A stretch of 32,000 nucleotides of DNA from Candidatus Saccharimonadota bacterium (GTDB lineage Bacteria; Patescibacteriota; Gracilibacteria; Absconditabacterales; Absconditicoccaceae): positions 390,001 to 422,000 of the forward strand of contig OZ246420.1 of NCBI GenBank assembly GCA_965231145.1, in the 5' to 3' direction. Position 1 is the stretch's first letter; each line of letters opens with the position of its first letter. Positions 1,964-25,871 of this stretch are shown here, one piece after another. A model generated the notes under the pieces. That model worked only from the letters and a program-made list of their open reading frames with translations. It made no database searches and was not told the DNA's origin. A program made the translations under genes and the position numbers.

Positions 1964-3505
1964 ATGAGAGATACATTGAAGTTTATTATTCAGGTAGCCG
2001 TTATTGTATTTGTAGGGTGGTTCCTGGTGAAATTTACGACGATAGATGATTCCATCATCTCATTTTTTCGCGCAAATAGTACGGTTATGACATGAAATGT
2101 TTCAGTTATCAATAACGGAGGAGATATTGTAGCCGGTGACGGCGCGTCGTGTACGACTCCATGGGGTGAAACACTCAATCATGGAACGTATATCATCGCC
2201 TATGAAAGCACGCAGTCATGTAAATATGAAAAGAGATTTTGTAATAATGGATATCTTGAAGGAACTTATTCATCAGACCACTGTAATTCACCTGAAGGCA
2301 TCATCCAAAAGACTGTCGTAAAACCCGTTATTTCTAAGATTGCATATGGTTATGTGCAGGGGACAACACAAAGCAATTATAGTTCTCCGAGCCTTACCAA
2401 TGGTAATGGAACAGTAACCATCATCAACTCATGGAATAATACGAAAGGGAATCCAACGACTATTTCAGCAAATGATAGTAACTATAAGAAGCCAACAGCT
2501 TATAAAAACTATGACCTTACACAGCATGGATGTACAACGCCATGGGGAAGTTATATAGATAGCAGCGAATGGGTTATTGCCTATAAGTCACCAAAGCCAG
2601 CCTATGCAGGAGCTTCATGTACGTATGAAAGAAGAACATGTTTCCAGGGTACGCTTGGTGGAAGTTACATCTATCCAACATGTACACTTGCTAACAATAA
2701 CACTATCTATAATAATTATGGTCAGGATTACTATTATCCAACTTCAGTCACAAACAGATCTTGTATAACACCATGGGGACAGTCAGTAAGAAATGGTTCT
2801 CGTGTTTATGCGTACAGATCATCATACTCTTCATCAAGCTATGGATGTCAGGGAGAGTATAGAACTTGTAGAAATGGTTACCTCGATGGTAGTTACCAGT
2901 ACAGCTCATGTAATAACTATGATAATGGTTGTCACTATGGTAACTGTGGAGGAAATGACTATGGTAGAAGCTGCTCACTTCCATGGGGAGGTAGCATAGC
3001 AGATGGGTCATCAGTAACAGCGTACAACAACTCATCAGCACCATGTTCAAGTGAAAGAAGAACATGTAGAAATGGCTATCTTGAGGGTAGTTATCAGTAT
3101 AGTTCATGTAATAATACACCAACATATAGTTCTTGTTCACTCCCATGGGGAGGTTCTATTCAGAACGGACAGACAGTAGAAGCTTACCAAAACTCATCAG
3201 CTCCATGTTACAAAGAGGTAAGAACATGTTACAATGGTTCGCTTGGTGGAAGCTTTCAGTATGCATCATGTAACCCTGGAACAAATCCAACAGGCGGATC
3301 AGATACATATGGTAGCTGGCAAAGTGCTGGTGACAAGGAAGGAAACGTTGATAGCCTTGATACTTGTAACTCTAATGCAACATCGCCATATACGTGTGGA
3401 TCAGAAAGCTCAAATAGCTGTACTGACTACCAGAAAATTAATTGTACATCATTTTCTCCTATGATCTGTTCATATCAAACAAGAGCGGTATCGTGTGTCA
3501 AATAA
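1964..3505 (+). CDS. Secreted/anchored cysteine-rich 'C-x2-PWG' repeat protein (513 aa under code 25)
   Basis: ATG 1964 shares a frame with track ORF 2354..3505, joined through one TGA at 2093-2095. N-terminal hydrophobic helix (FIIQVAVIVFVGWFLV), then five Cys-rich modules and a Cys-rich tail. TAA stop at 3503-3505, with a terminator downstream. Confidence 0.75.
2150..3271 (+). repeat. Five tandem ~46-51-aa protein modules: C-x-[TL]-P-W-G-x(~14)-A-Y-x(5-11)-C-x2-E-x-R-x-C-x-[NQ]-G-x-L-x-G-[ST]-[YF]-x(3-4)-C
   Basis: Modules run from first to last Cys codon at 2150-2284, 2531-2683, 2762-2911, 2972-3109 and 3134-3271. Each has four conserved Cys, for example CSLPWGGSIADGSSVTAYNNSSAPCSSERRTCRNGYLEGSYQYSSC. 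Confidence 0.8.
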
Positions 3506-5251: not shown

Positions 5252-5527
5252 GGGTTGAAGTATATTTTTTTATAACAAAAAAACAATGAAATATCATTTC
5301 ACAGAAAGAAAAAATAGAGCTTATTTATTGTATTCAATTTCTTTTATAATAGCTTAATAGAGCCATTATAATGGAGTGGTGGTTTCTGAAAAAACAATGG
5401 TTCTCGATCGCTTACGACGACACAAGAAGAGTGGAGACACATCCGGAAATTTACTTTTGGGATACTTACTGTATATCTAAGCGCTTTTTCAGTGCAAGCA
5501 AAAAGAGCATCTTCCTGTAATTATGGA

Positions 5528-5555
5528 TTGACTTGTTTTCCATATTTCATATAAA
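5528..5555 (+). promoter_or_regulatory. Candidate sigma70-type promoter for adk
   Basis: TTGACT (5528-5533), 16-nt spacer, TATAAA (5550-5555), about 27 nt upstream of the adk ATG. Confidence 0.35.
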
Positions 5556-5582
5556 TATGAAACAAAAACACATAATTGAAAT

Positions 5583-6164
5583 ATGAAACAGTTAGTATTA
5601 ATTCTCTTTGGACCACCAGGGTGTGGCAAAGGCACACAAGCAGAAAATGTTGTGCAACAATATGGGCTACTTCACATCAGTACAGGAGATTTACTCCGGG
5701 ATGAAATAGCTGCTCAGACTGATCTGGGTAAAGAAGCAAAAAAGCACATGGATCTGGGAGAGCTTGTACCAGATGAGGTGGTGATGAAAATGATCAGTGA
5801 ATACATTGCTGCTAACTCTGATGCTCCAGGATTCCTTTTTGATGGATTTCCCCGTACTAATGCACAAGCTGAGTTTCTTACTGCGCTTTTGCAGGAAAAA
5901 CTAATAGAACTTATTGGTCTTATAACCTTGGATGTGCCAGAAGATCTCCTTGTTGAGCGTTTGGTGCAACGAGGAATAGAGAAAGGTCGTACTGACGATA
6001 CTCCGGAGGTTATCCGAGACCGTCTCAAAACCTATGCTACCAAAACTATGCCAGTGCTTGAATATTATACAAGTATTGGTAAAAAAATTGTCAGTCTTGA
6101 TGGCGTAGGACACGTTAAAGTCGTTTTTGCGCGTATTGTCAGTGCATTAAACGAGATGATGTAA
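5583..6164 (+). CDS. adk: Adenylate kinase (short-lid form, 193 aa)
   Basis: Intact ORF with P-loop GPPGCGKGTQ, the ISTGDLLR and DGFPRT motifs, and a TAA stop. Confidence 0.95.
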   Translation: MKQLVLILFGPPGCGKGTQAENVVQQYGLLHISTGDLLRDEIAAQTDLGKEAKKHMDLGELVPDEVVMKMISEYIAANSDAPGFLFDGFPRTNAQAEFLTALLQEKLIELIGLITLDVPEDLLVERLVQRGIEKGRTDDTPEVIRDRLKTYATKTMPVLEYYTSIGKKIVSLDGVGHVKVVFARIVSALNEMM

Positions 6165-7985: not shown

Positions 7986-8492
7986 ATGGAACGTTATTAT
8001 ATTGGCAGCAGAAAAGCAGTAGAAAAAGAGGAAGAAAGAGAGCGGTATATGAATACTATCTCTGATCTTCAGGCAACATTATTTTCTACTGAGAAGGTAA
8101 TACTTGATCAAATAGATCGTGATATAGATGGGGCTGTAAAGTTATATATAAAGCCATTATTTGCTGATAATCATAAAGATCTTATTGTTACAAGAGTAAA
8201 AAATACTATTAAAGATTATCTCAACGAATGATTATTGAAGCAACCACCTGGTTTTTGGGAGTATTTTTTCTCGGGCGAGTTTGCCTACCATTTCTCCTAT
8301 CGGATTAGCTATAACAAGAACATCGTAGATCATTATTATGCTCATAAGGATGTAGATAAATACGAAGATGTGTTGATTGACTCTTTTAAAGATGCTGCGG
8401 AGCAGGTGCTTGAACAATATAATGAGAACGAGAAAAATAAATCAAAGAAAATTATCAATGAAGTAAAAGAAGTAGATATTGGTCTAAATTAA
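7986..8492 (+). CDS. Hypothetical protein (168 aa under code 25)
   Basis: Track ORFs 7986..8231 and 8235..8492 are in the same frame, joined by TGA 8229-8231. It sits 27 nt downstream of the PilB-like gene. No recognisable motifs. Confidence 0.5.
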
Positions 8493-8544
8493 CGAATAAC
8501 ATCATCAAAACATATTCCTAAACAATCGGGAATATGTTTTTATA

Positions 8545-11500
8545 TTACTTCAACGTTCTCATCAAAAGATCCATAACGTCAATTCTACGATTCTTTATGA
8601 TCCTTAGGCGAGAGGTTTCATCATATCTTTTAAGAATAATCTGCAGCTCATTTGTGCTGAGAGTATCGTATGGTCTGAAACTCGGTGTAAGTGTATTGGC
8701 TGTTGAGCCTCTTCCCATGAGACCGAGATTACAGATGTCTTGTATGACGCTTCTTACTGACTCGTTAATACTTTCATCAATATCTTGGTATGCATAAATA
8801 TTACATTCGCTACGAGGTTCGATTTCCTGCTGTGCTACATTTTTTACGTAGTTGACGATCATCGTAGCAGCTTCATACCTTTGTACTGGCACATAGAGTC
8901 TTGCTCTGCTCAGTGGCATAGTTGTCACGCCATTATCATGTGCCCATCTATAGACACTTGCAGGCGATGGATTTGTACCCATGTTTCCTCTATCTGGTAT
9001 CGGTTCATTTCCTGTTTCAATAGGTTTAGATTGGCTTTCTGCCGTAAGTATAGGTCTTGTATTGAGATTAAATGTCGGAGAAGCTCCGTCTTTGCCTGTA
9101 GCGACATTTGCGCGTTCTGGAAGAATAGTATCTATCCATGCATATGTGCCGGTAAGTGTATTGTTCGAATGATCGCTATCGTATCCAGACCAGAGAGTAA
9201 ATGTGAAGTCGTAGATTACCCCGGTTGTGGTATCTATGACAAAAGCTCCGGTAAAGAGAATAGTTGCATCATTTTGTGCAGAACTACTTGGGAGGATAGT
9301 ATATGTATATATTCCACTACCAAGTGATGTCCATCAGTTATTGTTGCTTGCAGAAATCATTCCGGTACCAATATCCACTCTCAGAGAACCAGTGAATGAA
9401 GCACTTGCTTCTCCTTGTGAGTAACGTGCTCCCAGAGTAAGAGTTGAACCTGTCATTTGAGTTCCTGATGTTGGAGAGAGGACAATGCTATTAAGTCTGC
9501 TGTCGCTGAGTATCGTCTGTGTATCTTCCCAGTTTACCTGATATGTATCCATGATGTCTAGCTCAGTACTTGCTATAACAGCTCTTGCAAGATGGTTGTA
9601 AGAAACATCTAATACATTGAGATTGCTGAGTGAAGAGAGAGTATTGCCAGGTATAGTAATAAGTTCATTGTGAGCAATGGAGAAGAATTCCAAATTACTA
9701 ATATTGAGAATGGTTGTTGGGAGCGTAGAGAAGTTATTTGTACTTATGTCTACTGCTGTAAGATATGGAAGTGAAGCAATGCTACTTGGGAGAGAAGAAA
9801 GATTGTTTGCAGAGAGGTCTATTCAGACAATATGTCATCCTGCGCAGCTTATGCCTTGCCAGTCACATATATTACTAATAGCGTTAGTACCCCAAGCCTG
9901 AGACCAACCACTCATGTTTGCAACTGTTGTTCCTGAAAGGGCAGTAGCAAAGTTTACTATTGTCTTACATTCATTTTCTGATATATCGAGCACTCATGCG
10001 CACGTACTTATCGTAACGCTTGATGCGTCAGTTGTCGCAGTTCTTATATCTCCTATATTTCCCATGAGATCTTGATATGAGATCGCTATACTTATAGCTC
10101 CTGCCGATACATTATTGTCAATTTCAAGCTCAGCTGTATAACAGTAGCTTTCGCATACTGTTTGTGAGACGCTAGCGCTTTGGCCTCATAGCGAAACGGC
10201 AAGAGTACTCATGTTCAATTGTTCATTTGATCTGAACGTCAGAGTAATAGTATCTCCATTTTCGCCAATCGTTGGATTCGTATTGTCTGTGCCTATGTGG
10301 ATAGTATCGAGCAAAGGTTTCTGTGTGTCTATATTTACTGTTCCGCTTGTTACCGCTGTTCTTACGGCGCCTATATTTCCTGCAAGGTCTGCATACGATA
10401 TACGAATGCCTGCGATACCATTGTTTGTAGTACCATCCACCGTAATGCTTCCTGAGTAACAGAATCCATCGCAGCTCATTCTTTGGAGATTTGCTGATCT
10501 TCCTGCTATGAGTCCAGACAGGCTTCCGGTCATGAGCGCTTCGCTTGCTGTAAAGAGGAGTGTTATTTTATCTCCTGATTTTGCACCTGTAGAATAGATG
10601 TTATTTGAAAAAATGAAGATATTTGAAAGAGTAGGAACAGATGCGTCTATACTTACTGATGAACTATCAGTTGTTTCTGTGATAGTTCATCCTGTGTTGC
10701 CTGCAGCGTCTTTATATGATACCGCTAATGCTACTGTTCATGAGGTGGTAGTACTGTCTACGACAATGCTTCCTGAATAACAGAACCCCGGACAGTTAGA
10801 CATCCTTACTACCGATCCGGACTTATTTGCTATACTGAGAGAGATCGATCAGGTGAGGAGGATTTCATCCGTTGTGAAAGATACCATGATAGTGTCGCCA
10901 GATCTTGCAACTCATGTTTGTGAGTTTGATGAGCGTATGTTTGCGGATAATAGAGCAGGTATTTGGTTGTCTATAGTTACTGAAGATCAATCAGTTACTG
11001 TAGTAAATTGAGTCCCAGAAACACCTATCATGTTTGTATAATCTATAGTGAATGAGACTGGATTACTGAATGCCTGAGACACCTGTGCTGTCGCAGTATA
11101 ACAATGAGATCCGCATGATCCGGTAGCAATACTAGCTTGCTGTCAATTTATGTCTACATTTATGTTGTTGATATCCAATTGTTCAGAACCTGTAAATGAA
11201 AGTATGATATTGTCTCCAGATTTTGCCAATGAGGTATTGTTTGCATTGTTAGAAGCGATATGCACATAAGTAAGCGTCGGTGCTTCTCTGACTACTTGTA
11301 CTGATGAGCTATCTGTTGTAGAAATATGAGTTACTCATGAGTTTCCAAATAAGTCGCTGTAAGAGATTGATATATCAAGTTCTCCATCAGAGAAATTACT
11401 ATCAATCGTAACAGTAGCGGTATAACATATCCCGCCACATGATGCCTCTTCAAGTGTTGCAGTTTGTCATCCTATAGTCACGTTTGCGCTGGTAAGATCA

Positions 11501-14500
11501 ATTTGTTCATCAGTCTCGAAGCTTAGTGTGACATCGTCTCATTCTACGGCGATAGCAGTATTGTCATTTGATGATGCAATAGATGCCATGACGATCTGAG
11601 GAGCTATTGTATCAATAATTACTTCCGAACTATCAGTAGTTGATGTCATGGTATTGGAGGTGTTTCACCTGTCATCTACATAGCTCACAGATATATCAAC
11701 AGTGCCATTTTGGGTTCCATTATCTACGATGATGGTTCATTCAAAGCATGTATCAGAACAACCTCTTATCATGTTTGCCGATTCTCCTGCTATGGTTGCA
11801 GAGATAGTATCAGCGTCAAATAATTTATTTGTTCGTATGTACAACGTTATGGTGTCTCATGATACTGCCTGAGTAGAATTTGTATTATTGGATGATGTAA
11901 TAGATACTTCATCAATGGTTGGCATACGCCCATCTATAGAAATACCCATATATATACCTGTAAAGACGTTATTGGGATTGCCAGCAAGATCGGTGGCTGT
12001 AACACTAAAGAGGGGATTTCCTACTGCCATTTGTTCATTTGCAAGAGTAGTGAGTGTATAACAAATACCTCCACAGTCTACACTTTGTAGCGTTCCTGTC
12101 TGTCACGCAATAAGCACGTGTATACTTCCTGAAATCAGTGGTTCATCGCTTTCGAAATATATTGTGAGTGTATCTCCTGAAATAGCTATCGTTGGGTCAG
12201 TATTATCCGAACTGATGTTCATTTGACTTATATTTACAGGAGTGGTATCTATGGTGATTGCATCATAATTGAGCCCAGTAGAAGACTGATTTCCAAAAGT
12301 GTCATATATATCTACTTCCAAGTAGAGAGTGCTATTGCTGTTGTTATTATCTATGACGAGAGCTCCAGAATAGCAGAATTCACCACAGTTCATTTTTTGT
12401 ATATTTACTGTTTCGCCATCAATAGTTACATGCGAAAGGCCTGTTGCTATAGCTTCATCTGTCTGAAACAGAACTGTTACCGTATCGCCTGATTTTGCAA
12501 ATGAACTATTTGGATTGGTAGAAAAAGCACTAATATTATAAATAATAGCAAGAGTATTGTCTATGGTGATCGAAGATCCGTCTGTTGTGGAGTATGTCTC
12601 TCCTGCGTTTTCATAACTGTCTGTATAGTAAAGATAGAATGATGCAAGTCAGTCTGACCGATAAGGAAGAGCTATTACTGATCATGAGTAACAATATGTC
12701 TCACATGAAATTGCTGTAAGATTTGATATGCTTTCGCCATTGATATCTGCATAGAAGCTAGATAATGATATCTCTTCATCGCTTTTGAAAGTAAGTGTTA
12801 TAATGTCCCCACTCTTTGCGGTTTGGTTAGAAGTAACATTGTTCGATTGTAGATGAATATCAGAAATTGCTGGCGCTCTTGTATCAATGTATACTGCGCT
12901 GTCTCAGGTCTCTAAACTAGTAAAGGTTGTTGTATTTCCCGCAAGATCATTGTATTGCACGAAGAGAGATGCATGTCACTGCTCGCTGTTTCCGCTTACA
13001 ATAATCTCTCATAGATAACAATAAAAAGGTAGGCATCCCGAAGCCATGGCTCCTGATAGGACGTGTATAGTGCCTGTTTGTCCTGCAATAAGCATTGAAA
13101 TAGTATTTGCTTTCAATGGTTCAAGCGTTTCTATAAATAAGGTTATAATATTGCCTGATATCGCAATATCGCTTGAAAGCGGATTGTCCGAATACATATC
13201 TTTTCAAATAGGAGTTGCTGGCGTATTGTCTGCTGTGACCGATGATCCATCCGTAGTTGCATCAACCCCGTTATGTGCATTACCGAAGCGATCAGTAATG
13301 TTTATCCGGAACGAAATAAGAGTATTTGTTGTGTTGTCCACTACGGTAGAAAAACTATAACAAAAACCATCACTACATGTAAATGATGCTAATGGTAAAG
13401 TAAGGTTATCCATGTTAGCATTATATATAATTCCGTCAGATCGTGTTGTGTCCAATGGTTCATTTGATTTGAATGAAACCGTGACTATGTCTCATGATTT
13501 TGCAAATCCTGTAGAAGAGAGGTTGTTTGACTCGATATGAACATTTGAAATAATCGGCTCTGTATTGTCTATGGTAATTGACGATCCATCTGTTGTCCCG
13601 CTAAATTGTACTCACTCGTTACCTGGCAGATCCGCATAGTCTATATTGATAGACTGGATTCACTCCGAGAAGTTTCAGTCTATTGTTATTTGTCATTGAT
13701 AACAGTATTGGTTGGCGCTTCCTCCACATTCTCATACGCCGACAAAAGAGAGGTGGTCTCCAGTAATTCCTCCAAATATGGGATAGACATAACTTAACTC
13801 TTCTGAAGATAGTATGGTGAAATTTATAGTGTCTCCTATGCGCGCGAAACCTGTATAATTTGTACTGGAAACAGACACATATGGAAGAATTGGTTTTATG
13901 GTATCTATAATAACATATGTGCCGTTATATGTAGCAGATATTATCCCGTTATCAGATACGTTTCCTACTTGGTCTGTATAGTAGATGCTGAAAGTGCCAG
14001 TCCCTTGTGTAGTGCCACTTTGTACTATTACGCTTACATCATAACAGAAAGCCATATTGCACGATGTTCCTGTAGCTGCAGAGTATACTGGAATGCCTGC
14101 TATGTCGCCTGTAATACTATTGGTGATGATAGGTTCGCTTGTGTCAAAGTGGACGGTGATGGTATTGCCTTGTTTTGCAAGAGAATTGTCATTTACATTT
14201 GAAGAAGTGATAGTTACAAACTCATGCTGGGGATTGATAATGTCTACTATGACATACGATCCGTCTGTTGTGCTCGTGTATTCTTCGCTTGGATTTCATG
14301 TTATATCTTTCACAAGAATACCTATCTCTGGTTCGTCGCCAGATCGGTCTTGATCTATAAGAAAAGTGGCTTCATAACAGTACCCATCACAGGCTATCTG
14401 TGAAAGAATTGCTTGAATACTATTGATGTAGACGCCTTGTCCTGGTTCTAGATTTGGCAGATCTATTTCTTCATCGGATTCAAATGAGACAGTGAGTGTA

Positions 14501-17157
14501 TCTCCTAGTCTTGCGTAATAGCTTGGAGTGCGATTTGACTCAATATGAATGTTTGAAAGGGTGGGTGCTATAGTATCAAGAAGCACGCTTGATGCATCGC
14601 TTGTCTGATTAATAGTTTCTCCGGTGTTACCATAGTTGTCATAATAGATGATTTCTACATTTACAAAATCATTGGGTTCTCATGAGCCAGTAACCGTTCG
14701 AATTGCCTGGTAACAATAAGTTCCACATCATATTGGAGATTCGACGATAGAATGACCATTGATAAACACTTCAGCAGAGATGGGTTCGTCAGCCTCAAAG
14801 GTAAGGAAAATATTGTTTCCTACTGAAGCTAATGTAGTATTTGGATTGTCTGATTCGATATGAACCGCTGATATAACAGGTGCGATGCTTTCTATTTCTA
14901 CAGCAGAGCTATCGCTAGTGGCGGTTTCTTCCAATCATGCATTTCCAAATAGATCTTGATAGCCTATAGTAAACTGTGCATTTCACTGTTGAGAATATTG
15001 ATCTATCAAGATGTTTGCTAGATAACAAAATACTCATGGTCCACAGTCACCTTGTGAAGCTGAAGCTGATTGGCCTGCAATAGTAACCGTAAGAGTATTG
15101 AGGTCCAATTCTTCATTTGCAAAGAAACTCAAAGAAACTTCATCTCCAAAAACTGCTATAGCGGGATCATTGGAATTTGTTGACTCGATATGTATGTCAC
15201 TCAACCCAGGAGGATCAAGATCTACTCCATATTGAGTGCTTTCCCAGTCGGGTTGCAGTAAATCCAGTATGTCAGTCTCTGTTGAGGCAAGGTTATTTCT
15301 ATTGAGGTAGTTATACGAAGCATCAATGGACGTGAGAGTGTTTCCTATTTGTGCAAAAAGACCTGCGTCAAGATAACTAATAAGGTTGCCACTAAATCAT
15401 AAAGAGCTAAGATTGGCAAGCGATCAAATTTCTACTGGTAGAGCTGTTAGCTGATTGTTAGAAACATTGAGAGCGGTGAGAGCAGATATGTCATAAATAC
15501 TTGAGTCTATGATAGATATTTGATTATTGCTCACATCAAGAATATTGAGTACGTTGAATGATCCAAGAGTATATAACTCACTAGGAAGAGATGAAATCTG
15601 ATTGTGATTCAAAAAAAGTGATACTAGTCATTGTAAGAGACTTATGCTGGAAGGAATAGAACTAATCTGATTATGTGAAAGATCAAGTAGTTCAAGATTT
15701 GCTATTTCTTCAAGTTCATCTGGCAAGCTGCTGATCTGATTGTTGCTGAGGTGGAGTTGGCTTAATTCAGCTAATCCATTGAAGAAACCGCTTGAGACTA
15801 TCGAGATGTTTGCTCAAGAAAGATCAATAGCGTTTGCTCGTCACTTAGAAGTACAGCTTATGCCTTGCCAGTTACAGATCGTAGTTATGATGGGTGTTGA
15901 TTCAAGTAATGCCGACCATCCAGGAAAAGAAGTAAGATCGCTTCAAGGGTTCTCTGTTGCCAATTGTAAGAGACTTCTACACTGTTTGCCTTCGATGCCT
16001 TTCATGAGATCACAATATTGAAATTGAGAAGAAGTTATATCCCGCTGATAGGTTCAGGTAGTAACATTGTTCTCCATATTGATGTCGTACTGATATTCTT
16101 GACGTCTTTGGCTCAAGAGAAAAAGGAACGGATATATATATCACGTATTTACCTTGCCGCCCAATGTTCAAGTGAAAACAATAGTCCCCGACGATGGCTC
16201 AAATGAAGAAGTGGGTAGCGCATAATAATAGTAGCCACTTGTACTGTCAAATCTCCAGTTTGGATCATTTGCTGGGTCTGGTGTAAGAGTATTGGTATTA
16301 AATCTAAATATAATACTATTTCATAAAACAGAGCCTCCTGATCATAGATTATAATCTACTGCAATGGTAAGTAGTCTATAGTTGTTTTCATATCCAATTT
16401 GTACATTACTCAGTATATTATCATTTTCAAAAGTTTGTGTATTTTGCCAATTTGGTGCATAGGTATCTAGGAAGGTAATAGTGCTTTCAGCAAGCCCGCC
16501 AGTTGTCAGATAATTATTATCAATAGAAAATGTACTTATGCTAGGAATTGCATCAAACGCACCTTCTTCTATCGTAAGAAGATGATTATTATCAAAAGTA
16601 AGTGTGTGAAGAAAAGTAAGATTTCATAATCATATAACAGAAGTAAGTTGATTATCATTGAAAAGAGCTACCTCAAGGTTTCCTAGTCATTGGAGGTCTG
16701 GCATGCTGGTGAGCTGGTTGTGTGACAGATCTAAGCTTGTAAGCAAAGCAAAGCTGCTCAATGTAGAAGGAGCTTGCGTTATATTGGTATGGGAAATTTG
16801 GAGCGAAGAAAGAGACGTAATATTCGCGATAGAGTCTGGTATGACATCGAGTGCGAGGTTTGTTAGAGAAACTTCCGTAATAGAGCCGTTTCTACATGTT
16901 ACTCCTTGCCAGTCACACACCGTGTCGTCCGATGTACTAAGGACGAGCGTTTCAAACCATCCTGGATAATTTGACCAGTCTGCAGAAGTGTTGTTGTCAT
17001 AGATATCTACCAGAGCAGAACATTCTAAAGGATTAACATCCGAGACCTGATTACAATCCATGCCTCCTGTTGCGTGTGCGACATATTGTGGTGCCACCAA
17101 TGAAAATAAGACTACAACAAAGGCTAACAATAAACTTCCAGCTACAATTTTTTTCAT
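8545..17157 (-). CDS. Giant secreted cell-surface protein, 2,870 aa under code 25 (signal peptide, 3 LRR modules, 16 Ig-like repeats, C-terminal anchor-like module)
   Basis: All eleven minus-strand track ORFs between 8545 and 17157 share one frame. I read every frame-1 plus-strand triplet in the gaps and found only 'tca' (TGA), never 'tta' or 'cta', with about 50 TGA by manual count. The N-terminus MKKIVAGSLLLAFVVVLFSLVAPQYVAHA is a signal peptide. TAA stop at 8545-8547. Confidence 0.85.
8548..8990 (-). other. C-terminal ~145-aa anchor-like module of the giant protein (SLH-like pattern)
   Basis: VYRWAHDNGVTTM..RYEAATMIVNYV..ECNIYAYQDID..VIQDICNLGLMG..LTPSFRP. A second copy of this module forms the body of the separate secreted protein at 18959..19576. 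Confidence 0.5.
9517..9990 (-). repeat. LRR module 3 of the giant protein
   Basis: N-cap ENECKTIVNFATALSG..WSQAWGTNAISNICDWQGISC, then ~23-aa LRRs (IDLSANNLSSLPSSIASLPYLTAVDISTNNFSTLP..), then the C-cap DTYQVNWEDTQ. Confidence 0.75.
10000..15231 (-). repeat. 16 tandem ~105-110-aa Ig-like/beta-sandwich repeats (period about 320-335 nt)
   Basis: The recurrent unit is D-[ST]-S-x-V-x-I-D-x3-P-x-[LI]-x4-I-x-S-x-N..A-K-S-G-D-x-[IV]-T-[LV]-x-F..E-x-L..I-[AG]-G-[QE]..C-x(2-4)-C-Y..I-x-Y-x-D-x2-G-N. I counted 16 C-x(2-4)-C-[YF] hairpin motifs, near 15040, 14720, 14390, 14050, 13700, 13380, 13020, 12690, 12380, 12070, 11750, 11430, 11110, 10780, 10460 and 10150. Confidence 0.8.
15232..16020 (-). repeat. 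LRR module 2 of the giant protein
   Basis: N-cap QYCDLMKGIEGKQCRSLLQLATENP[TGA]SDLTSFPGWSALLESTPIITTICNWQGISC, then LRRs (LHLSNNQISSLPDELEEIANLELLDLSHNQISSIP..), then the C-cap LLQPDWESTQ. Confidence 0.75.
16435..17070 (-). repeat. LRR module 1 of the giant protein
   Basis: N-cap CNQVSDVNPLECSALVDIYDNNTSADWSNYPGWFE..VCDWQGVTC, then LRRs (LQISHTNITQAPSTLSSFALLTSLDLSHNQLTSMP..), then the C-cap DTYAPNWQNTQ. Confidence 0.75.
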
Positions 17158-17401
17158 TCAATACAAACGAAAAGCGAATAAATACTTAGTTAATATGATG
17201 AAATACCCATCAATTGCAAAAGATAACATCAAAAAACCATTGAAAAATCTTTCCATATCACCTATACTATGTATAGTTATATACATGGCTCGGAGAGCCA
17301 TTTATGAGAATGAGAGACGATTTGAAAAATACTATGAATTGCGTTTTGCAAATACTCCGTCTTTCAGTATTATTGAAGTATATATTTTTTGATAAAAAGA
17401 G

Positions 17402-18516: not shown

Positions 18517-18777
18517 TTAGGTAGTTGCCGTTGTTTCATCGCCACCAGTGTTGGTTGTTTCGTCGCCGCCGGTATTGGTTGTTTCATCGCCACCAGTGTT
18601 GGTTGTTTCATCGCCACCAGTGTTGGTTGTTTCGTCGCCGCCGGTATTGGTTGTTTCATCGCCACCAGTGTTGGTTTCGTCTTTCCCTATGCAATTGCTG
18701 GCCGGTGCCTTTTCGTCCGATGTGTAGCCGCCGCTTGATGCCGTGTGTCCGTGGTCAAATAAGAATGTTTTTTTCAT
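18517..18777 (-). CDS. Small acidic Thr/Gly-rich tandem-repeat protein (86 aa): MKKTFLFDHGHTASSGGYTSDEKAPASNCIGKDE(TNTGGDET)n TATT
   Basis: ATG 18777 is preceded by AAGAG, one of the rare SD-like sequences in this window, and by a TTGACA-16-TATCAT promoter. TAA stop at 18517-18519, with a terminator downstream. The repeat units differ only at synonymous sites. Confidence 0.6.
   Translation of the reverse strand: MKKTFLFDHGHTASSGGYTSDEKAPASNCIGKDETNTGGDETTNTGGDETTNTGGDETTNTGGDETTNTGGDETTNTGGDETTATT
18533..18676 (-). repeat. Six 24-nt tandem units in two sequence variants, ordered A-B-A-A-B-A
   Basis: On the plus strand A is gtttcatcgccaccagtgttggtt and B is gtttcgtcgccgccggtattggtt. The 4 differences per unit are all third-codon positions on the minus strand (aac/aat, act/acc, ggt/ggc, gat/gac). 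Confidence 0.9.
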
Positions 18778-18805
18778 GACTCTTAATTTTTTTTGGTGAG
18801 GCTCT

Positions 18806-18833
18806 ATGATAATCAATCAATAATATTTGTCAA
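18806..18833 (-). promoter_or_regulatory. Candidate strong sigma70-type promoter of the acidic-repeat peptide gene
   Basis: The minus strand reads TTGACA (18833-18828), 16-nt spacer, TATCAT (18811-18806). Confidence 0.45.
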
Positions 18834-18958
18834 TGGTTATTTCTTATGTGTGCTATATAGATATGACAGTCTAAAATAAGCACTAAAAGCTATTTTCCCT
18901 TGCAATGTGTTCGACTCTCTGTAGATAGGAAACATTTATTCTCTGTTTCTCTACAGGT

Positions 18959-19576
18959 ATGAAAACCTTTCATAAAAAATCTCTTATTTTCCTTGTTCCA
19001 GCATTAGGCTTGATATTTTTCACATCTGCCTTCTCCTACGGTAAAACTATTACCACGTTTTCCTCAAATAATCCTTCGCTTATAAGTGATCAAGAAGGTT
19101 ATGATCGGGCTTATACCAATAACATTACGACACAGCCGAAGGCTCTCGCAAACCTTACTGGTTCTGTCAGAAGATATGAACTCGCAAAAATGATGTCAGA
19201 GTTTTATACTACTGTCATGGGCTACGCTATAACACCAAATCCAGCATGTGATATAACGCTATTTTCTGATTACGGGACTTTTAATCTGGAAATGAAAACA
19301 TATATAAAGAATATATGTGATATGGGTATCATGGGCTGGAACGCTAAAAAAACTGCATTATTGCCTTCATTTCAGGCTAATATGGTTCTATCAGCTATAG
19401 ATTTCAATACGATCATGATAAGATACATTAGGATGGCACGTATAAACTATAGCTTTAGACTTCCTAAAGTAGTAACGAGAAGTGATGTCTTTCGCTTTCT
19501 CTATGATATGGGTAAATATCAGACTCCACAGCAGCCAGGGCAGGGGGGTGTACAAAATAATGCATTAGGACAATAA
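18959..19576 (+). CDS. Secreted protein consisting of a signal peptide plus one anchor-like (SLH-like) module, 205 aa
   Basis: Intact ORF with signal peptide MKTFHKKSLIFLVPALGLIFFTSAFSYG. The body aligns by eye with the giant protein's C-terminus (YDRAYTNNITT../RYELAKMM../ACDITLFSDY../IKNICDMGIMG../LLPSFQ). Confidence 0.7.
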   Translation: MKTFHKKSLIFLVPALGLIFFTSAFSYGKTITTFSSNNPSLISDQEGYDRAYTNNITTQPKALANLTGSVRRYELAKMMSEFYTTVMGYAITPNPACDITLFSDYGTFNLEMKTYIKNICDMGIMGWNAKKTALLPSFQANMVLSAIDFNTIMIRYIRMARINYSFRLPKVVTRSDVFRFLYDMGKYQTPQQPGQGGVQNNALGQ

Positions 19577-19584
19577 TATAAAAT

Positions 19585-19612
19585 AATTCCTTTCCGAAGG
19601 AATTTTCTTTTA
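19585..19612 (+). terminator. Rho-independent terminator
   Basis: Hairpin aattcctt-tccg-aaggaatt (19585-19604) followed by ttcttttac. Confidence 0.6.
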
Positions 19613-20258
19613 CAAAGACATATTATTATACAGTGATAATTTCATGCATAGAAAATATTAAAAGAGGAGTGTACATGTCACAGACACAAGTCGACACACT
19701 CTAATTGTTGAAAAGTGGCTCCCCTGGGCATTGTGATAAAAATGATATAATATATTTTCATGTGAATAGAAATAATAACTAGTGTGTATTTTACATAAAC
19801 ATGGGGAACCAGGGGTTATATAATCCCCTTAAGGCTGATATATGAAAAACATACCCAACCTTGCACAAGATATATTGTGCAATGTAAGAACATGACCAAG
19901 GGTAGGGTCCGTAGAATAAAATCCACACAGGAAAAAATATAAAATTATAACGTGATTTATTGTGCGCCATATAAAATATATAATCCTGCGTTCAAAATAT
20001 GTAAGCATAAAATTTCTCTATCCTTATTCCTCTGCTCACTATTTCAAAATAATAAAAAATCATGAAAAATGCTGTTTTTCATGATCTAGATTTGATGATT
20101 TCTGGATGCGGGTGGACCCAAGTGCCACCCAGAGTTCAAAAACTGCCTGAATAGAAAAAGGGTAGTTTGTACCTATGAAAATGGGGTAGTTACTCCCCTG
20201 TTTTAGAAAAACTAAATAATAGATAGTATTTATTAGTAACTATTTCCAATTATTATTG

Positions 20259-20558
20259 CTACCACGTAGAATATTCTAAATTATTTATATCAGATTCAAT
20301 ATTATCCATATTATATTGAACGTCGTCTATATTTGATTGTACATTATCTATGCTATCTTGTGCATTATATATGTCATCTTCGGCGTAATCCATTCTATTT
20401 TTGAGATCATCAATCTCATATTGCATATCGTAGATATCACTTTTTAATCAATATATTTCGTCTTCTAATGCTGAAATTCTTTTACCCGTTTTAGATGTAC
20501 AACCAGATAAAATAAGGCTAAAAATGAGTGTTATTAACAATGTGGCTTTTTTCATCAT
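20259..20558 (-). CDS. Small coiled-coil lipoprotein (99 aa under code 25)
   Basis: Absent from the track because it is split by TGA 20448-20450. MMKKATLLITLIFSLILSGC carries a lipobox (L-S-G-C). The rest is an acidic heptad-like sequence (ISALEDEIY[TGA]LKSDIYDMQYEIDDLKNRMDYAEDDIYNAQDSIDNVQSNIDDVQYNMDNIESDINNLEYSTW). TAG stop at 20259-20261. Confidence 0.6.
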
Positions 20559-20577
20559 AGAAAATTTGCATCTAAAA

Positions 20578-20859
20578 TTATTTACAATATGACTTGTCTA
20601 CATATGTTTTATTTCCACTATTATTTACATAGTAACATCCGTCTTTAGGTCACTTAATATATTTAATGGTAATCTTCTTAGTTGAAGGTAGCTTACAGTA
20701 TGACTTATGGCAATGATATTGATCTGTCTTATAGCCGTATCTTGCACAGTTTGTCCTGCAATAATGACCTCCATTAGAATCTAATCCACCAGGACTAGCA
20801 AAGGTGAAGCTTGTGATTCATACTAATGTAGTAATAAGCAATAAAAGTGCTTTCTTCAT
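20578..20859 (-). CDS. Secreted YHYH-motif protein with a C-terminal GPxxGxYY basic motif (93 aa under code 25)
   Basis: Absent from the track because of TGA at 20818-20820 and 20650-20652. Signal peptide MKKALLLLITTLV[TGA]ITSFTFA, then SPGGLDSNGGHYC..YGYKTDQYHCH (YHYH-family pattern), then IK[TGA]PKDGCYYVNNSGNKTYVDKSYCK. TAA stop at 20578-20580, 19 nt before the lipoprotein start. Confidence 0.65.
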
Positions 20860-21013
20860 GCCGGCTAAATGAAAGAATAAATATGGCTAAAGATTATCCT
20901 TATGGGATATTATTACAACATAAATAAGATATTGTAATTATGTTTTTGTGTATTTTCACTCCTCCGCCGCTTCGGAGGGCCAATTTGAATTTGTGTACGA
21001 TCATATTTTTATA

Positions 21014-21038
21014 TAAAAAAAAAGGAGCTTTCGCTCCC
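21014..21038 (-). terminator. Rho-independent terminator after the DEAD-box helicase gene
   Basis: Stem ggagc (21024-28) pairs with gctcc (21033-37), and the minus strand continues with T9 (plus-strand A-run 21015-23). Confidence 0.6.
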
Positions 21039-22313
21039 CTATCTTCCATGAGATCTTTTCTGGTTGTGTCACCATTTTTTGCCTTCGTTTCTATGATTAC
21101 TATTTGGGTGGGCTCTTCCTGAAGATCATGTATTTCTTGGTGGTCTTTGTTGCTTCTTTGGAGTTGGTGTATAGACGCCGTTTGTATAAGGATGATCTTT
21201 TACTACCGGGATATCTTGTTTAATAAGTTTTTGAATCTCTTTGATGTGCTTTTTCTCTTCTGTGTCAGAGAATACAATAGCTTTCCCTTGTGCTCCTGCG
21301 CGTCATGTACGACCTATGCGGTGCACATATGTTTCTGGTTCGGTAGGAACATCATAGATGAATACATGAGATAGCAAATCAATATCAATACCTCTTGCTG
21401 CAATATCTGTTGCGACAAGAACTCTTATTTTCTTTTCTTTAATATCTTTCAACGCATTTTGCCTTGCGCCTTGTGACTTGTTTCCATGAATAGCAGCAGC
21501 TTTAATCCCCGCTTTTGCAAGAACAGTTGTTACCTTGTCTGCTCCATGTTTTGTCCTCGTAAATACGATAGCATTTTCTATGCTTGTGTCTTTCAGAAGA
21601 TGTAAGAGAAGATCTTTTTTATCTTGTTTTTCTACGTAATAGAGCGATTGTCAAACTGTGTCTACTGCGGATGAGACAGGAGTGATTTCCACTTTCACAG
21701 GATCTTTCAATATCGTATGAGCAAGCTCCAATATTGCTTTTGGCATAGTAGCAGAAAAGAAAAGCGTTTGTCTTTTGAAAGGAACTTTAGAAACTATTTT
21801 CTTCACATCATGAATAAATCACATATCTAACATACGATCTGCTTCATCGAGGATAAGCATCTTCACATATCAAAGATTGATATGCTTTTGATTGATAAGA
21901 TCGAGAAGTCTTCCTGGAGTCGCAATAAGTATGTCTACTCCTTTGCGAAGTGTCTTTACCTGTGGTGCTTGTCCTACTCCACCAAATATAACAGTGTGTC
22001 TGAGGCCTGTATGTTTTCCATATGCTGCAAAATTTTCACCTATTTGTATGGCTAGTTCTCTTGTTGGCGTAAGTACAAGTGCTTTGATGCGATCTTTGTC
22101 CTCTCCTCCTTGTGGTGCTGAGTATAACATCTGTAATGTCGGAATAGCAAATGACGCTGTTTTCCCTGTTCCTGTTTGTGCACATCCAAAGAGGTCTTTC
22201 CCTGAGAGTACAACAGGAATTGACTGTGCTTGAATGGGCGTTGGAGTCGTATAACCCTCTGATTCAAGAGCTTTCAGTATCGGTTCAATGAGTTGTAAGT
22301 CGCTAAATTTCAT
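21039..22313 (-). CDS. DEAD-box ATP-dependent RNA helicase (RhlE-like, 424 aa under code 25)
   Basis: I walked the frame from 22313 to TAG 21039-21041 and found 5 in-frame TGA (21069, 21303, 21651, 21819, 21870). Motifs are the Q-motif [23 protein letters not shown][TGA]F, SAT, and HRIGRT[TGA]RAG, with a basic C-terminal tail. Confidence 0.9.
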
Positions 22314-22360
22314 GTTTTAATTATTTCAAGAAGATGGTAAAATTATTTAATCTGCTAGTA

Positions 22361-22388
22361 AGTATACGGTAAAATTGTTATAAGACAA
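22361..22388 (-). promoter_or_regulatory. Candidate promoter of the helicase gene
   Basis: The minus strand reads TTGTCT (22388-22383), 16-nt spacer, TATACT (22366-22361). Confidence 0.3.
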
Positions 22389-22391
22389 ATG

Positions 22392-22413
22392 AAAAAAGAG
22401 GATTTAATCCTCT
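22392..22413 (-). terminator. Rho-independent terminator after tex
   Basis: Stem agaggat pairs with atcctct (22397-22413), and the minus strand then runs into T6. It starts right after the tex TAA stop. Confidence 0.55.
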
Positions 22414-22414
22414 C

Positions 22415-24694
22415 TTATCACCAACTAATATTTCATTTTATGCTGCTTTCGCCTGGTGTCTCTTTCTTAGGCATTGTATTTCTTGGTACTTGTTTAGCTG
22501 CTGGCTTGACTGTTCATTCATTGAGTGTTTTCATGCTCAGACTTACTTTTTCTCTTTCAAGGTCTACTTCCAATACTCTTACTTTTACTTGCATACCTAC
22601 TGATACAACATCACTAGGGTTTGCAACGAAGCGATCTGCGAGCTGAGATTTATGTACGAGTCCATCATTATGTAGACCGATGTCGACAAACGCTCCAAAG
22701 TCCGTTACATTTCTTACTGTCCCATCGAGTACCATACCTATTTGCAGATCTTTTGTTTCAAGAATATCTGATTTAAATGACGGTGGTTCTATGTTTTCGC
22801 GAGGATCTAGTCATGGACGTTGTAGCTCCTTTATGATATCTGAAAGTGTTTCAAAACCTATGTCATATGTGGTAGCCCATGATTGAATAGTCTTTTCATT
22901 TGCTGTTTGAAGCTTAGCGTCAACGAGTGGTAATTGTAGTTTCTTTTTTGTGAGACCAAGCTCTTTTTCAAGGAAGTCATATGTCTTGTCATACATTTCC
23001 GGATGGATGCCTGTTGCATCGAGTGGTTCTTTTCCTCCGATGATACGTAGAAATCCAATACATTGTTCATATGCTTTAGGTCAAAGTCCTTTTACTTTTT
23101 TCAGCTGAGACTTACTAGTAAACATGCCGTTTTCATCACGATAGGTGACAATATTTTTTGCGATAGTGAGAGACAATCATGCGATGTATTGCAAGAGTGT
23201 ATAACTTGCCGTATTCACATCAACGCCAACACTATTCACGACATCCTCTACTCTTTCATCGAGTTTCTCCATAAGAAGTTTCTGATCTACATCGTGTTGA
23301 TATTGTCCTACTCATATAGATTTTGGATCAATCTTTGTAAGTTCAGCAAGTGGATCTTGTACACGATGAGCAATGCTGATCGCTCCTCTGACTGTCACAT
23401 CGAGATGTGGATACTCTTCCTGGGCAAGTTCTGATGCTGAATAGACAGATGCTCCTGCTTCAGAGACGATCATATATTTCGTATCCAGCTTATGCTCTTT
23501 AATGAACTCACTGACAAAGCGTTCTGACTCACGAGATGCTGTACCATTTCCGATAACAATAAGATCAACACTATATTTCTTTATCATATCGAGTAATTTC
23601 TTTTGTGAATTTTGTATTTGTGCATCTCCGTTTGTCGGATAGATGACGTCATTGTAGAGAAATTTTCCTGTCTGGTCTACCACAGCAAGCTTGCATCCTG
23701 TACGGAACCCCGGATCAAAACCAAGTACAGTCAGTCCTCTCACAGGAGGTGTAAGTAATAGATGTTTCATGTTTTCTCCAAAGACCTTTATTGCTGCTTC
23801 ATCTGCCCAACGCTTCTTATTGCTATGTATCTCTCTTTCAACCGATGGCAATAACAATCTTTCAAGTCCGTCTTCAATTGCCTGCTTTAGATAGACAACG
23901 ACGCTACCAGCATTTTTCGGGATAAATTCTTGCTCTGCAAGATCTATAATCCTTGGCATAGAGAATGTAAGACCTGTAGAAAGTTGTTTCTCTTCTTCTG
24001 CTCTGGCTATAGCGAGATATGCGTATGAAGGCATGTCTGCTATCTTTTTGCTATAATTAGCATAGATCTTATAGACTCCATTTTCTTCAAATGTTTTGCT
24101 TGTCTTCGTGGTGAGCACGGCATTATTCTCTTCGAAGGTACGTATGTTGTCACGAAGTGATGGACTATCACTCACCTCTTCAGCAACAATATCTTTTGCT
24201 CATTGGATTGCTTCAGTGCTATCAAATACAGATGTCTTTTTATCTCCCGTATCTTTGATGAATTTCTCTGCTTCCACAATAAATTCTTCTTCTGTGATAA
24301 GACATGTGCGAAGGATCTCAGCAAGAGGTCAAAGCCCTTTGGCTTTAGCGATAGTTGCTTTGGTGTTCTTCTTTTCCTTGAAAGGTCTATAGAGATCTTC
24401 CACTCTTGCAAGTGTCTCTGCAGCCATGATTGCAGCTTCAAGCTCAGGGGTCATAAGTCCCTTTTCAGCTATAAGACGAATGACGTCGAGCTTACGCTGC
24501 TCGAGATTTTTCGTATATGTGTAGATCTCATGAAAGTCGCGAAGCTGTTCGTCAGTTGCCCCTTCAGTTAGTTCCTTACGATAACGAGCGATGAAGGGAA
24601 CGGTATTCCCCTGATCTAAAAGATCTATAATTACCTGTACGGTATTTTTGCTCATGCCTACTTTCTTGACGATGTTTTGTATAAGATCTGCCAT
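22415..24694 (-). CDS. tex: Tex-like transcription accessory protein (YqgF/HhH/S1 domains, 759 aa under code 25)
   Basis: Track fragments 24329..24694, 23312..24175, 22811..22996 and 22514..22735 share one frame. There are nine in-frame TGA (24329, 24200, 23312, 23177, 23081, 22811, 22514, 22433, 22418). Motifs include [11 protein letters not shown][TGA][11 protein letters not shown][TGA][13 protein letters not shown], and the S1 domain [19 protein letters not shown] stop at 22415-22417. Confidence 0.9.
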
Positions 24695-24848
24695 ATCTTT
24701 CCTGTATTATTTTATAAAATCGTACCCGCCAGTATAGCATTTTAGCTGGTAAATACCAGAGATCATACAATCTTTATTTGTGTCTATGTTTGTCTATATT
24801 TCTTCTTCCAAGGGTTGTTATTTCCAATAAAATAACTATCATACTGCT

Positions 24849-25613
24849 ATGAAATCCCTCGCTAAAAACCTTATTTTCTGAGCATGACTTCTTGCGGCAA
24901 CTTCGCTCCCTGATGGGATTTTAGCGCAGACAAATAAAAGAGGTAGAATTCAACTTATAGAAGTATTGGATACGCCAAAAGTGTCTATTAGTAGGATCGC
25001 AAATAAGAAGCCTATAGAAGCTATTAAAAGAAATCCTGAGATAAACAGATCTATCTATAAAAGTATTCATACTCTGGATAGCATGGTATCCAGCTTACAA
25101 AAACGGGATACCGTGAATCATATTGTATGAGAAGATATATGTTTTATCTGGAAAAAAGATGGATGGCAAACTGAACTCACAGTTCATACTGCTACTCCTC
25201 ACGCTTCTACCTATCCTGCAGAAAACCTACTCTATGTCTTTGATTTCGTAAAAACGAAGACAGATGAAAAATGAGATGTTATCTATGGCAATAAGAGAGA
25301 GACAATTCGTCAGTGAGTTTCAAGAAAGATACTTGTAGAAACTATAGGCGGAGAGCTATATGCTTACTATAAAGACTATGATAATAGCAGGTATATGGAT
25401 GTCGCTACTCCGCTCTCTGATACAAAAGTAATGCGATCTGATGCTCCTGATTTTTTTGTTCCAGAAGACGCAGCTAAACGATATGCTTATAGAAAGATCG
25501 GTTCTAAAAAATTAGCGTTTGAGGTTGAGAATATTCGTCTTCTTCTTGAACAAGCAAAAAGAGATTATCTTCATTATATTCATAAAGATAACCCCAAAGA
25601 AAGTATAAAATAA
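24849..25613 (+). CDS. Secreted hypothetical protein (254 aa under code 25)
   Basis: ATG 24849 shares a frame with track ORF 25395..25613. Five in-frame TGA, two of them in the signal-peptide h-region (MKSLAKNLIF[TGA]A[TGA]LLAATSLPDGILAQ). I read the frame through with no TAA/TAG. No recognisable family. Confidence 0.6.
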
Positions 25614-25614
25614 T

Positions 25615-25636
25615 AAGCCGGACATCCGGCATTTTC
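25615..25636 (+). terminator. Rho-independent terminator
   Basis: Hairpin gccgg-acat-ccggc (25617-25630) followed by attttc. Confidence 0.45.
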
Positions 25637-25704
25637 AATTGACAACGAAGGCTGAAAAGCTAAATACTTATTCAATTACTTCTTTATATTCTTATTGTCA
25701 TTCT

Positions 25705-25854: not shown

Positions 25855-25871
25855 GTCGTATATACATGATT

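Follow-up and report, generated by a model that had tools for sequence, protein, structure and literature searches.

The 32-kb stretch of DNA analyzed here, which we call the window (32,000 nucleotides; positions 390,001 to 422,000 of contig OZ246420.1 in assembly GCA_965231145.1), carries on its minus strand at 8545..17157 a single intact gene of 8.6 kb that encodes a 2,870-aa protein when TGA is read as glycine. This giant protein is modular: an N-terminal signal peptide is followed by two leucine-rich repeat (LRR) modules with a β-rich domain between them, 16 tandem immunoglobulin (Ig)-like repeats, a third LRR module, a second copy of the β-rich domain, a short linker, and a C-terminal module with a predicted S-layer homology (SLH)-like fold. 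The modules were located in the order given by an earlier description of the locus, made by a model from the sequence alone (hereafter the original prediction), and that architecture proved essentially right. We read it, with some confidence, as the architecture of a protein with a role in attachment to a bacterial host or prey.

A single open frame in which TGA is read as glycine

The frame opens with an ATG at 17157 and closes with a TAA at 8545-8547, spanning 8,613 nt and 2,870 sense codons, of which 50 are TGA and none is TAA or TAG. Under code 11, the same frame splits into exactly 11 in-frame open reading frames (ORFs) of at least 60 aa. These counts agree with the original prediction, which had described one gene hidden as 11 or more fragments, with TGA, about 50 times, as the only stop-like triplet.

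Three independent lines of sequence evidence lead us to conclude that TGA encodes glycine here, as in genetic code 25. When the Ig-like repeats are aligned with one another and one copy has a TGA in a column, Gly makes up 43% of what the remaining copies have there (background 6.8%) and Trp does not occur; TGA also completes two Gly columns of this alignment that are nearly invariant. In neighboring housekeeping genes, TGA falls on glycines of the PP-loop and DEAD-box consensus motifs, which are established knowledge for those families: the invariant Gly of the MnmA PP-loop (SGGxDS, here SG-TGA-VDS) and, in a DEAD-box helicase, the conserved Gly of MLDMGF (MLDM-TGA-F) and of HRIGRTGR (HRIGRT-TGA-R). 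Codon alignment with an ortholog, described below, yields 73 pairs that involve TGA, 45 of them TGA opposite another Gly codon, 18 TGA opposite TGA, and 10 of other kinds. TGA makes up 23% of the Gly codons in the giant gene and 13% in its neighbors, and Trp is encoded by TGG, which occurs 16 times in the giant gene, for example in C-x-W-x-G motifs. No tRNA genes, and hence no tRNA-Gly with anticodon UCA, were found in the 32-kb window.

If TGA were instead a stop (code 11) or Trp (code 4), or if the locus were a field of pseudogene fragments, there would be no single Gly-containing product of 2,870 aa. Such a reading can draw on the 11 code-11 fragments, on public code-11 gene calls that list fragments homologous to the giant protein (P0121-P0123), and on the source pipeline of the ortholog, which translated TGA as Trp and thereby called the ortholog full-length. 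We regard it as already refuted by the sequence evidence and leave it a negligible probability: TAA and TAG are missing from all 2,870 codons and likewise from an ortholog of 69% identity, the ratio of nonsynonymous to synonymous substitution rates (dN/dS) is ~0.1 across the TGA positions, and in the alignments TGA pairs with Gly but not once with Trp, whose genuine codons are the 16 TGG. Since the pipeline that read TGA as Trp recovered the ortholog as one protein, the giant gene is hidden from code-11 gene callers only; the expectation that standard annotation would miss it held for those callers and failed for that pipeline. The annotation problem is also visible directly in L001 (Logan ERR4405439), which corresponds to window positions ~18650-29500 and in which code-11 gene calls fragment Tex, the DEAD-box helicase, and TrpS; its short-read contigs break ~300 bp upstream of the ORF at 18959.

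The frame stays open for 48 codons 5' of 17157, up to an ATG at 17301, which we rejected as the start: it is absent in the ortholog, and three 1-nt indels separate the two orthologs 5' of the ATG at 17157. The upstream alignment shows conservation around GTATTGAATGAAAA, the ATG at 17157. Because of these conserved surroundings, the indels and the lost ATG upstream, and the position of the protein's sole hydrophobic segment at aa 3-29, comparison of the two loci identifies 17157 as the right start codon, in line with the original prediction, and we take the complete coding sequence to be 8545..17157.

Collapse or mis-joining of the repeats during assembly was considered and rejected: no long near-identical DNA repeats occur within the giant gene. 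Those that do occur reach no more than 57 nt and are 61-77% identical, which makes the count of 16 Ig-like repeats credible and an assembly artifact unlikely.

An ortholog under purifying selection in a variable slot

An indexed protein search returned the ortholog, P0001 (2,583 aa, 3,710 bits), which is encoded on a 23-kb contig from another sample that shares the gene order of the window: TruD, giant gene, small ORF, PilB-type ATPase, MnmA, Cys-rich protein, methyltransferase, and PheS. Its frame is free of TAA and TAG but contains TGA 46 times, its protein is 69% identical to ours, and it has 13 Ig-like repeats rather than 16, the difference appearing as one clean 316-aa gap that equals three repeat units. 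By the Nei-Gojobori method, the proportion of synonymous differences (pS) between the two genes is ~0.70, which is near saturation, that of nonsynonymous differences (pN) is 0.19, and dN/dS is ~0.11 overall and 0.07-0.21 for the modules taken one by one. Saturation of dS would, if anything, make these ratios too high. We conclude from the codon comparison that the whole 8.6-kb frame is under purifying selection and that the gene is functional, and purifying selection over the entire frame excludes the pseudogene reading.

The giant gene also has the highest dN (0.218) among its syntenic neighbors (0.023-0.146), and PilB is 96% identical between the two genomes. Identity to the ortholog is highest in the anchor and the third LRR module (82% in both) and lowest, among structured regions, in the distal Ig-like repeats (58%), with the linker lower still at 51%. 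The slot that the giant gene occupies, between PilB and TruD, lacks it in two relatives whose PilB is 77-78% identical: in GCA_030429145.1 (L004 10001-12659) PilB is directly followed by TruD, and in a contig from SRR32417865 (L005 5588-10058) two small unrelated ORFs stand in its place. No further copies were confirmed in JGI metagenome contigs or in scans of reference-genome contigs for the C-terminal region and PilB, which used patterns from poorly conserved stretches. An indexed search with the repeat profile returned four short fragments only, code-11 fragments from other samples that include P0121 and P0122. Taken together, these comparisons mark the giant gene as a rare, lineage-specific accessory gene, fast-evolving yet constrained, in a variable slot.

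Fast evolution and variation in presence and absence would also fit an arms race with phages, and Ig-like and LRR domains are able to bind many ligands. The giant protein could on these grounds serve as a defense or a decoy at the cell surface, where it would bind phages, proteases released by the host, or other threats. We find this very improbable, however: the Pfam scan found no protease-inhibitor or known defense domains (the PADLOC defense library was not searched), and a dN/dS of ~0.1 gives no sign of diversifying selection at the scale of modules. For the attachment role that we favor, the combination of high dN, changed repeat number, and absence of the gene from the slot in relatives is a pattern typical of host-interaction genes.

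Signal peptide, LRR modules, and β-rich domain

All features of the giant gene lie on the minus strand. The putative signal peptide (aa 1-29; 17071..17157) begins with MKK, continues into a hydrophobic core, and ends in AHA, ahead of the residues TGG; on the Kyte-Doolittle scale, aa 3-29 form the only hydrophobic window of the giant protein, as would be expected if the signal peptide proposed in the original prediction is genuine. The giant protein contains no LPXTG-like motif and no further membrane-spanning segments. Acidic residues far outnumber basic ones (304 D/E against 86 K/R), and Ser, Thr, and Asn are abundant, as expected for an extracellular protein. Its 46 Cys residues fall into 23 patterned pairs, with 12 Cys in the LRR caps, 32 in the hairpins of the Ig-like repeats, and 2 in the anchor.

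The three LRR modules of the original prediction are recognized by Pfam, with LRR_8 at E=1.5e-27 (95.6 bits, cutoff 27) and LRR_4 and LRR_14 at 84.4 and 85.2 bits (both ~5e-24). Every module opens with a cap that contains four Cys and closes with C-[DN]-W-Q-G-[VI]-[ST]-C. Module 1 (aa 33-247; 16417..17061), delimited by the Pfam LRR matches and its Cys positions, runs from an N-cap ending CDWQGVTC through its LRR units to a C-cap ending NWQNTQ. Module 2 (aa 380-646; 15220..16020), which has the longest LRR run and the best stretches for Pfam LRR_8, LRR_4, and LRR_14, runs from an N-cap ending CNWQGISC to a C-cap ending DWESTQ, and module 3 (aa 2385-2548; 9514..10005), delimited by Pfam LRR matches and LRR units, from an N-cap ending CDWQGISC to a C-cap ending NWEDTQ. 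The cap motif resembles LRRNT_2, a likeness seen three times by eye; with Pfam PF08263 itself, one cap scores E=0.22 (12.2 bits, cutoff 20.7) and the remaining two have no match.

Directly after modules 1 and 3 come the two β-rich domains (copy 1, aa 248-378, 16024..16416; copy 2, aa 2549-2680, 9118..9513), each delimited by its homology to the other (BLASTP E=1e-9, also found by phmmer). The original prediction was right that both regions exist but had treated them as separate kinds, a non-repeat domain and a Thr/Gly-rich domain of which copy 2 forms part, whereas they are two copies of one domain. This domain has no match in Pfam or NCBIfam, nor did a profile of it find one among PDB sequences, and its assignment to DUF11/CLIPPER was rejected at an hhalign probability of 0.2%. 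Copy 2 is joined to the C-terminal module by a 55-aa linker rich in Pro, Thr, Gly, and Asn (aa 2681-2735; 8953..9117), the least conserved segment in the comparison with the ortholog.

Cys-capped LRR modules that are each followed by a β-rich domain resemble the architecture of internalins (module 2 adjoins the Ig-like repeats instead), and Absconditabacteria are reported to occur in oral microbiomes. If the organism were animal-associated, then the giant protein could be an internalin-like effector directed at a eukaryotic host or at animal tissue, an idea that we consider distinctly unlikely. What the giant protein has in common with Listeria internalins and other bacterial LRR adhesins is a capped LRR solenoid, which serves as a binding surface, a β-rich domain, repeats, and a wall anchor. 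It differs in that it has no LPXTG or GW anchor, three LRR modules instead of one, and four-Cys N-caps with a plant-like C-x-W-x-G-[VI]-x-C, and Pfam, hhalign, and PDB sequences revealed no link between its β-rich domain and the internalin-type inter-repeat domain. Cultured or observed members of the family, moreover, attack bacteria (PMC8080830, PMC13059738), and it is a bacterial partner that the attachment reading assumes.

Ig-like repeats

Between LRR modules 2 and 3, 16 tandem Ig-like repeats of 104-117 aa each occupy aa 650-2384 (10006..15210), as delimited by their hairpins, alignment, AlphaFold2, and Foldseek. The repeats share a mean pairwise identity of 31%, and each carries a C-x(2-8)-C-[YF] hairpin, so that 16 hairpins follow one another at a spacing of 104-117 aa. 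The Cys hairpin is invariant in 29 of the 29 repeat copies of the two orthologs and is probably closed by a disulfide. The repeat count of the original prediction stands, while its unit of ~105 aa with a C-x(2-4)-C-Y hairpin had to be broadened to these ranges.

Neither the full protein nor repeat 15 gives a direct Pfam match to the repeats, Big families included, and NCBIfam, searched with the β-rich domain, the anchor, and the LRR caps as well, offers for the repeats a far sub-threshold match to "tail_200_repeat" only. We modeled repeat 15 with AlphaFold2 from an alignment of the window repeats that lack TGA, the 13 repeats of P0001, and related repeats of P0005, P0124, and fragments, in which a few Trp-for-Gly mistranslations from P0001 add slight noise. 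The model (pLDDT 95.7, pTM 0.86) is all-β and Ig-like, so the repeats do have a predicted fold, a point on which the original prediction had staked its reading. Foldseek searches of the PDB with this model matched only generic Ig-like sandwiches (ICAM-1, the GspB siglec domain, antibody V domains, and NPC2), with a best TM score of 0.57 and no match at E<=1e-3.

Relatives of the repeats are found through intermediate sequences. Among the members of the repeat alignment, 5 of 30 match Pfam Big_12 (1.2e-6) and 3 of 30 match Big_13; the repeat profile matches at least 10 repeats in P0005, at E-values down to 4e-20, and P0124 carries the repeat type too. Because of these matches and the related repeats in P0005 and P0124, the sequence comparisons and the model together lead us to classify the repeats as a divergent branch of the Big_12/13 group whose hairpin is lineage-specific. 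Big_12/Big_13 repeat adhesins such as P0005 (4,627 aa, with a type IX secretion system sorting tail) share with the giant protein both the repeat family and its arrangement in tandem stalks, but P0005 and P0124 have an N-x-W-x-A-x-Y strand turn where the giant protein has its C-x(2-8)-C-[YF] hairpin.

A predicted divergent SLH-type anchor and its family

The C-terminal module (aa 2736-2870; 8548..8952), delimited by AlphaFold2, Foldseek, and the Pfam matches of its family, is predicted to form five helices and contains two invariant Cys. Its AlphaFold2 model has a pLDDT of 94.2 and a pTM of 0.89, and the top 15 Foldseek matches in the PDB are all SLH domains, each of them either SpaA-SLH of Paenibacillus alvei or Sap-SLH of Bacillus anthracis (probability 0.85-1.00, TM 0.53-0.66); past these 15, TM falls below 0.4. 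Canonical SLH domains have three TRAE-type motifs and bind a pyruvylated secondary cell-wall polymer, which needs CsaB. The corresponding motifs read QRYE, STNE, and RRID in the giant protein and TRAE, TRAE, and TRAD in relatives.

An exhaustive search of 1.84 billion cluster representatives with a three-sequence anchor profile recovered a family of 710 proteins at E<=1e-3, 126 of them at E<=1e-10, all counted as cluster representatives. Its core of ~112 aa is C-terminal in large proteins, whereas in members of ~1,000 aa it lies near the N-terminus, at aa ~30-135, and the domains it travels with are extracellular: DUF11, β-helix, β-propeller, Listeria-Bacteroides repeats (Flg_new), Big, fn3, and LRR. 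Among the top 150 members, at least 30 carry Trp where Gly is conserved, and short fragments are numerous, a sequence pattern that suggests enrichment of the family in TGA-recoded lineages. Pfam SLH matches 13 of 27 aligned family members (best 1.5e-6) and is the only family to recur among them. Because the predicted fold and the Pfam SLH matches of these intermediate sequences point the same way, we concluded from model and sequence that the module described as anchor-like in the original prediction is a divergent SLH-type wall anchor.

Several observations weigh against this conclusion. Pfam SLH (PF00395) does not match the C-terminal 168 aa of the giant protein at E<=1; the Foldseek E-values to SLH domains are modest (5e-3 and weaker), though the matches are exclusive; and Arg is kept in two of the three TRAE-like motifs (QRYE and RRID) and lost in STNE. 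Against PDB sequences, the anchor profile reaches SbsB and SpaA only at nonsignificant E-values of 0.27-0.76. The Pfam families anticipated in the original prediction thus fared unequally: LRR matched, Big and SLH gave no direct match to the giant protein, and LRRNT_2 came up below its cutoff on one of three caps.

In Firmicutes SLH proteins such as Sap and EA1 of B. anthracis and SpaA of P. alvei, a helical SLH region of ~140-170 aa provides the hold on the wall, and the predicted fold of our module matches solely these proteins. It differs from them in a sequence that is invisible to Pfam, a compact size of ~135 aa, the two invariant Cys, and the loss of Arg from one TRAE-like motif. A combination of LRR with SLH is known from B. 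cereus IlsA.

An SLH-type anchor is also the classic anchor of S-layer proteins, a long and uniform Ig stalk would fit the role of a spacer, a small protein consisting of an SLH-like module alone adjoins the giant gene, and Vampirococcus has a fibrous, sticky surface and stacked cells (PMC8080830). The giant protein might on this evidence be a structural component of the envelope, either an S-layer-associated spacer fiber or a glue that stacks the organism's own cells, as in the piles of Vampirococcus. We judge this unlikely. Three LRR modules are ligand-binding scaffolds and not lattice formers, the absence of the gene from its slot in two related genomes and its evolution faster than that of its neighbors would be unexpected for a core structure, and the family members of ~1,000 aa with an N-terminal module look more like S-layer proteins proper. 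The adjoining gene just mentioned (18959..19576, plus strand) is paralogous to the anchor (E=2e-19, 33% identity) and not part of the giant gene. It contains no TGA and encodes a small secreted protein of 205 aa, a signal peptide plus the SLH-like module, which its sequence suggests may be a free wall-binding protein.

Genomic setting and organism

In-frame TGA is also present in the neighboring housekeeping genes of the window, which encode PheS, a methyltransferase, MnmA, Adk, the PilB-type ATPase, TruD, the DEAD-box helicase, Tex, TrpS, and peptidases. The best named matches of the PilB-type ATPase are to Absconditabacterales (58%), Vampirococcus lugosii (57%), SR1 RAAC1 (53%), and Gracilibacteria (52%), and other relatives are 76-79% identical. 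No 16S or ribosomal protein genes were found in the window, and placement in a clade comes from PilB alone; by this marker and its code, the organism is Absconditabacteria-like (SR1/Gracilibacteria, code 25), and an identity of 57-58% to the PilB of named Absconditicoccaceae implies a different genus or family.

Just 3' of the giant gene's stop, between it and the convergent ORF at 7986-8492, a hairpin with a 13-bp stem (8507..8540, assigned to neither strand) is probably a bidirectional terminator, judging from its sequence. TruD and the giant gene are divergently oriented, and the intergenic region that separates them holds a perfect 15-nt palindrome, TGGCTC-GGA-GAGCCA, at 17286-17300. It is identical in the ortholog locus (L003), where its flanks have diverged, and none would be expected by chance; the palindrome could be an operator or a regulatory hairpin.

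Around PilB, the two loci differ in gene content. The window has an adenylate kinase gene at 5523-6164 (plus strand), flanked by MnmA and PilB, that is found nowhere in the 19 kb of the syntenic locus L003, and the ORF at 7986-8492 (168 aa), at the 3' end of the giant gene, is unrelated to the 240-aa ORF in the equivalent place in L003. Given the missing Adk and the unrelated small ORFs, several variable slots flank PilB. A few kb from the ortholog, at L003 18660-19154, where it runs off the locus, a second large surface protein of 1,161 aa combines LRR with DUF11/CLIPPER, which suggests from the gene content that LRR surface proteins are locally concentrated in this lineage.

Other secreted products are likely to be encoded nearby. 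The 513-aa product of the ORF at 1964-3505 (plus strand) is hydrophobic at its N-terminus and contains some six Cys-rich repeats that follow the pattern C-x-[TL]-PWG...AY...C-x2-E-x-R-x-C-x-NG-x-L-x-G-x-Y...C. This protein matches nothing in Pfam or NCBIfam, is 91% identical in L003 with a dN/dS of 0.07, and looks like an unannotated secreted repeat protein. Within 20259-20859 (minus strand), two small ORFs have N-termini that resemble signal peptides or lipoproteins, the one at 20259-20558 with acidic, heptad-like repeats of the D-x-x-Y-x-x-Q type and the one at 20578-20859 rich in Cys and Tyr.

A possible role in attachment to other bacteria

Genomes of Absconditicoccaceae encode 8-10 SLH-domain proteins each, together with many surface proteins of more than 1,500 aa that bear adhesion domains (PMC13059738), and the giant surface and SLH proteins of the family have been proposed to serve in host contact or recognition (PMC8080830, PMC13059738). 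The class of giant surface proteins has been defined by a length above 1,500 aa, the presence of either a signal peptide or a membrane segment, and domains of adhesion type (PMC13059738); the protein described here has 2,870 aa, an N-terminal signal peptide, and LRR, Ig-like, and SLH-like modules. It is like the giant proteins of Vampirococcus lugosii, Absconditicoccus praedator, and Strigamonas methylophilicida, which also belong to epibiotic or predatory code-25 Patescibacteria, in having a signal peptide and adhesion-type domains. In kind, then, a giant exported SLH-bearing surface protein of a code-25 genome is already described for Absconditicoccaceae.

The domains published for those giants, however, are WD40, TPR, PKD, DUF11, integrin, fn3, and others of their kind, and LRR is not listed in PMC8080830 or PMC13059738. 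Our protein stands apart from them in its three LRR modules, 16 Cys-hairpin Ig repeats, two copies of the β-rich domain, and an SLH variant that Pfam misses. The new particulars are accordingly those LRR modules, the Cys-hairpin repeat of Big_12/13 type, the LRR-following β-rich domain, and a compact SLH variant whose family Pfam largely misses.

The N-terminal signal peptide would direct the giant protein to export through Sec, and the C-terminal divergent SLH domain would hold it noncovalently at the wall, as SLH domains do in S-layer and S-layer-associated proteins. The 16 Ig-like domains, probably clamped by disulfides, would form a stiff stalk, ~60 nm long when fully extended at ~4 nm per domain, and this stalk would project an N-terminal head, made of LRR module 1, the β-rich domain, and LRR module 2, outward from the cell, leaving LRR module 3 and the second β-rich domain near the wall. 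The LRR modules may then act as ligand-binding surfaces with which these epibiotic bacteria recognize the surface of the host or prey cell they depend on and attach to it. The adjoining PilB ATPase lends this model nothing: a functional link was rejected as evidence since the adjacency is not conserved. An adhesin is the reading that offers the best explanation of the protein as a whole, and it agrees with the published surface proteomes of Absconditicoccaceae (PMC8080830, PMC13059738).

A more specific version of the attachment reading, which we offer as speculation with little expectation that all of it will hold, would make the giant protein a determinant of host range in an epibiotic predator. 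The gene would be a lineage-specific cassette inserted into a variable slot, the fast-evolving distal LRR head and the number of Ig repeats (16 vs 13) would tune the protein to the surface of the prey and to its distance, and the Cys-bridged SLH variant, unrecognized until now, would bind a wall polymer specific to Patescibacteria and not the pyruvylated polymer of Firmicutes.

Whether or not this version holds, several of the results may be reused elsewhere. The family of SLH-like anchors, with ~700 sequence clusters that are mostly missed by Pfam, should be useful for finding the surface proteomes of code-25 bacteria, and the Cys-hairpin variant of Big_12/13 and the LRR-following β-rich domain are further reusable results. 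The locus is also a clear example of how code-11 gene calling shreds such genes, and current views are not overturned by it. Epibiotic Patescibacteria depend wholly on attaching to another cell, and to our knowledge none of their attachment proteins has a defined ligand. The giant gene would offer a well-delimited candidate for attachment, with LRR heads, an Ig stalk, and an SLH-type anchor that can be expressed separately.

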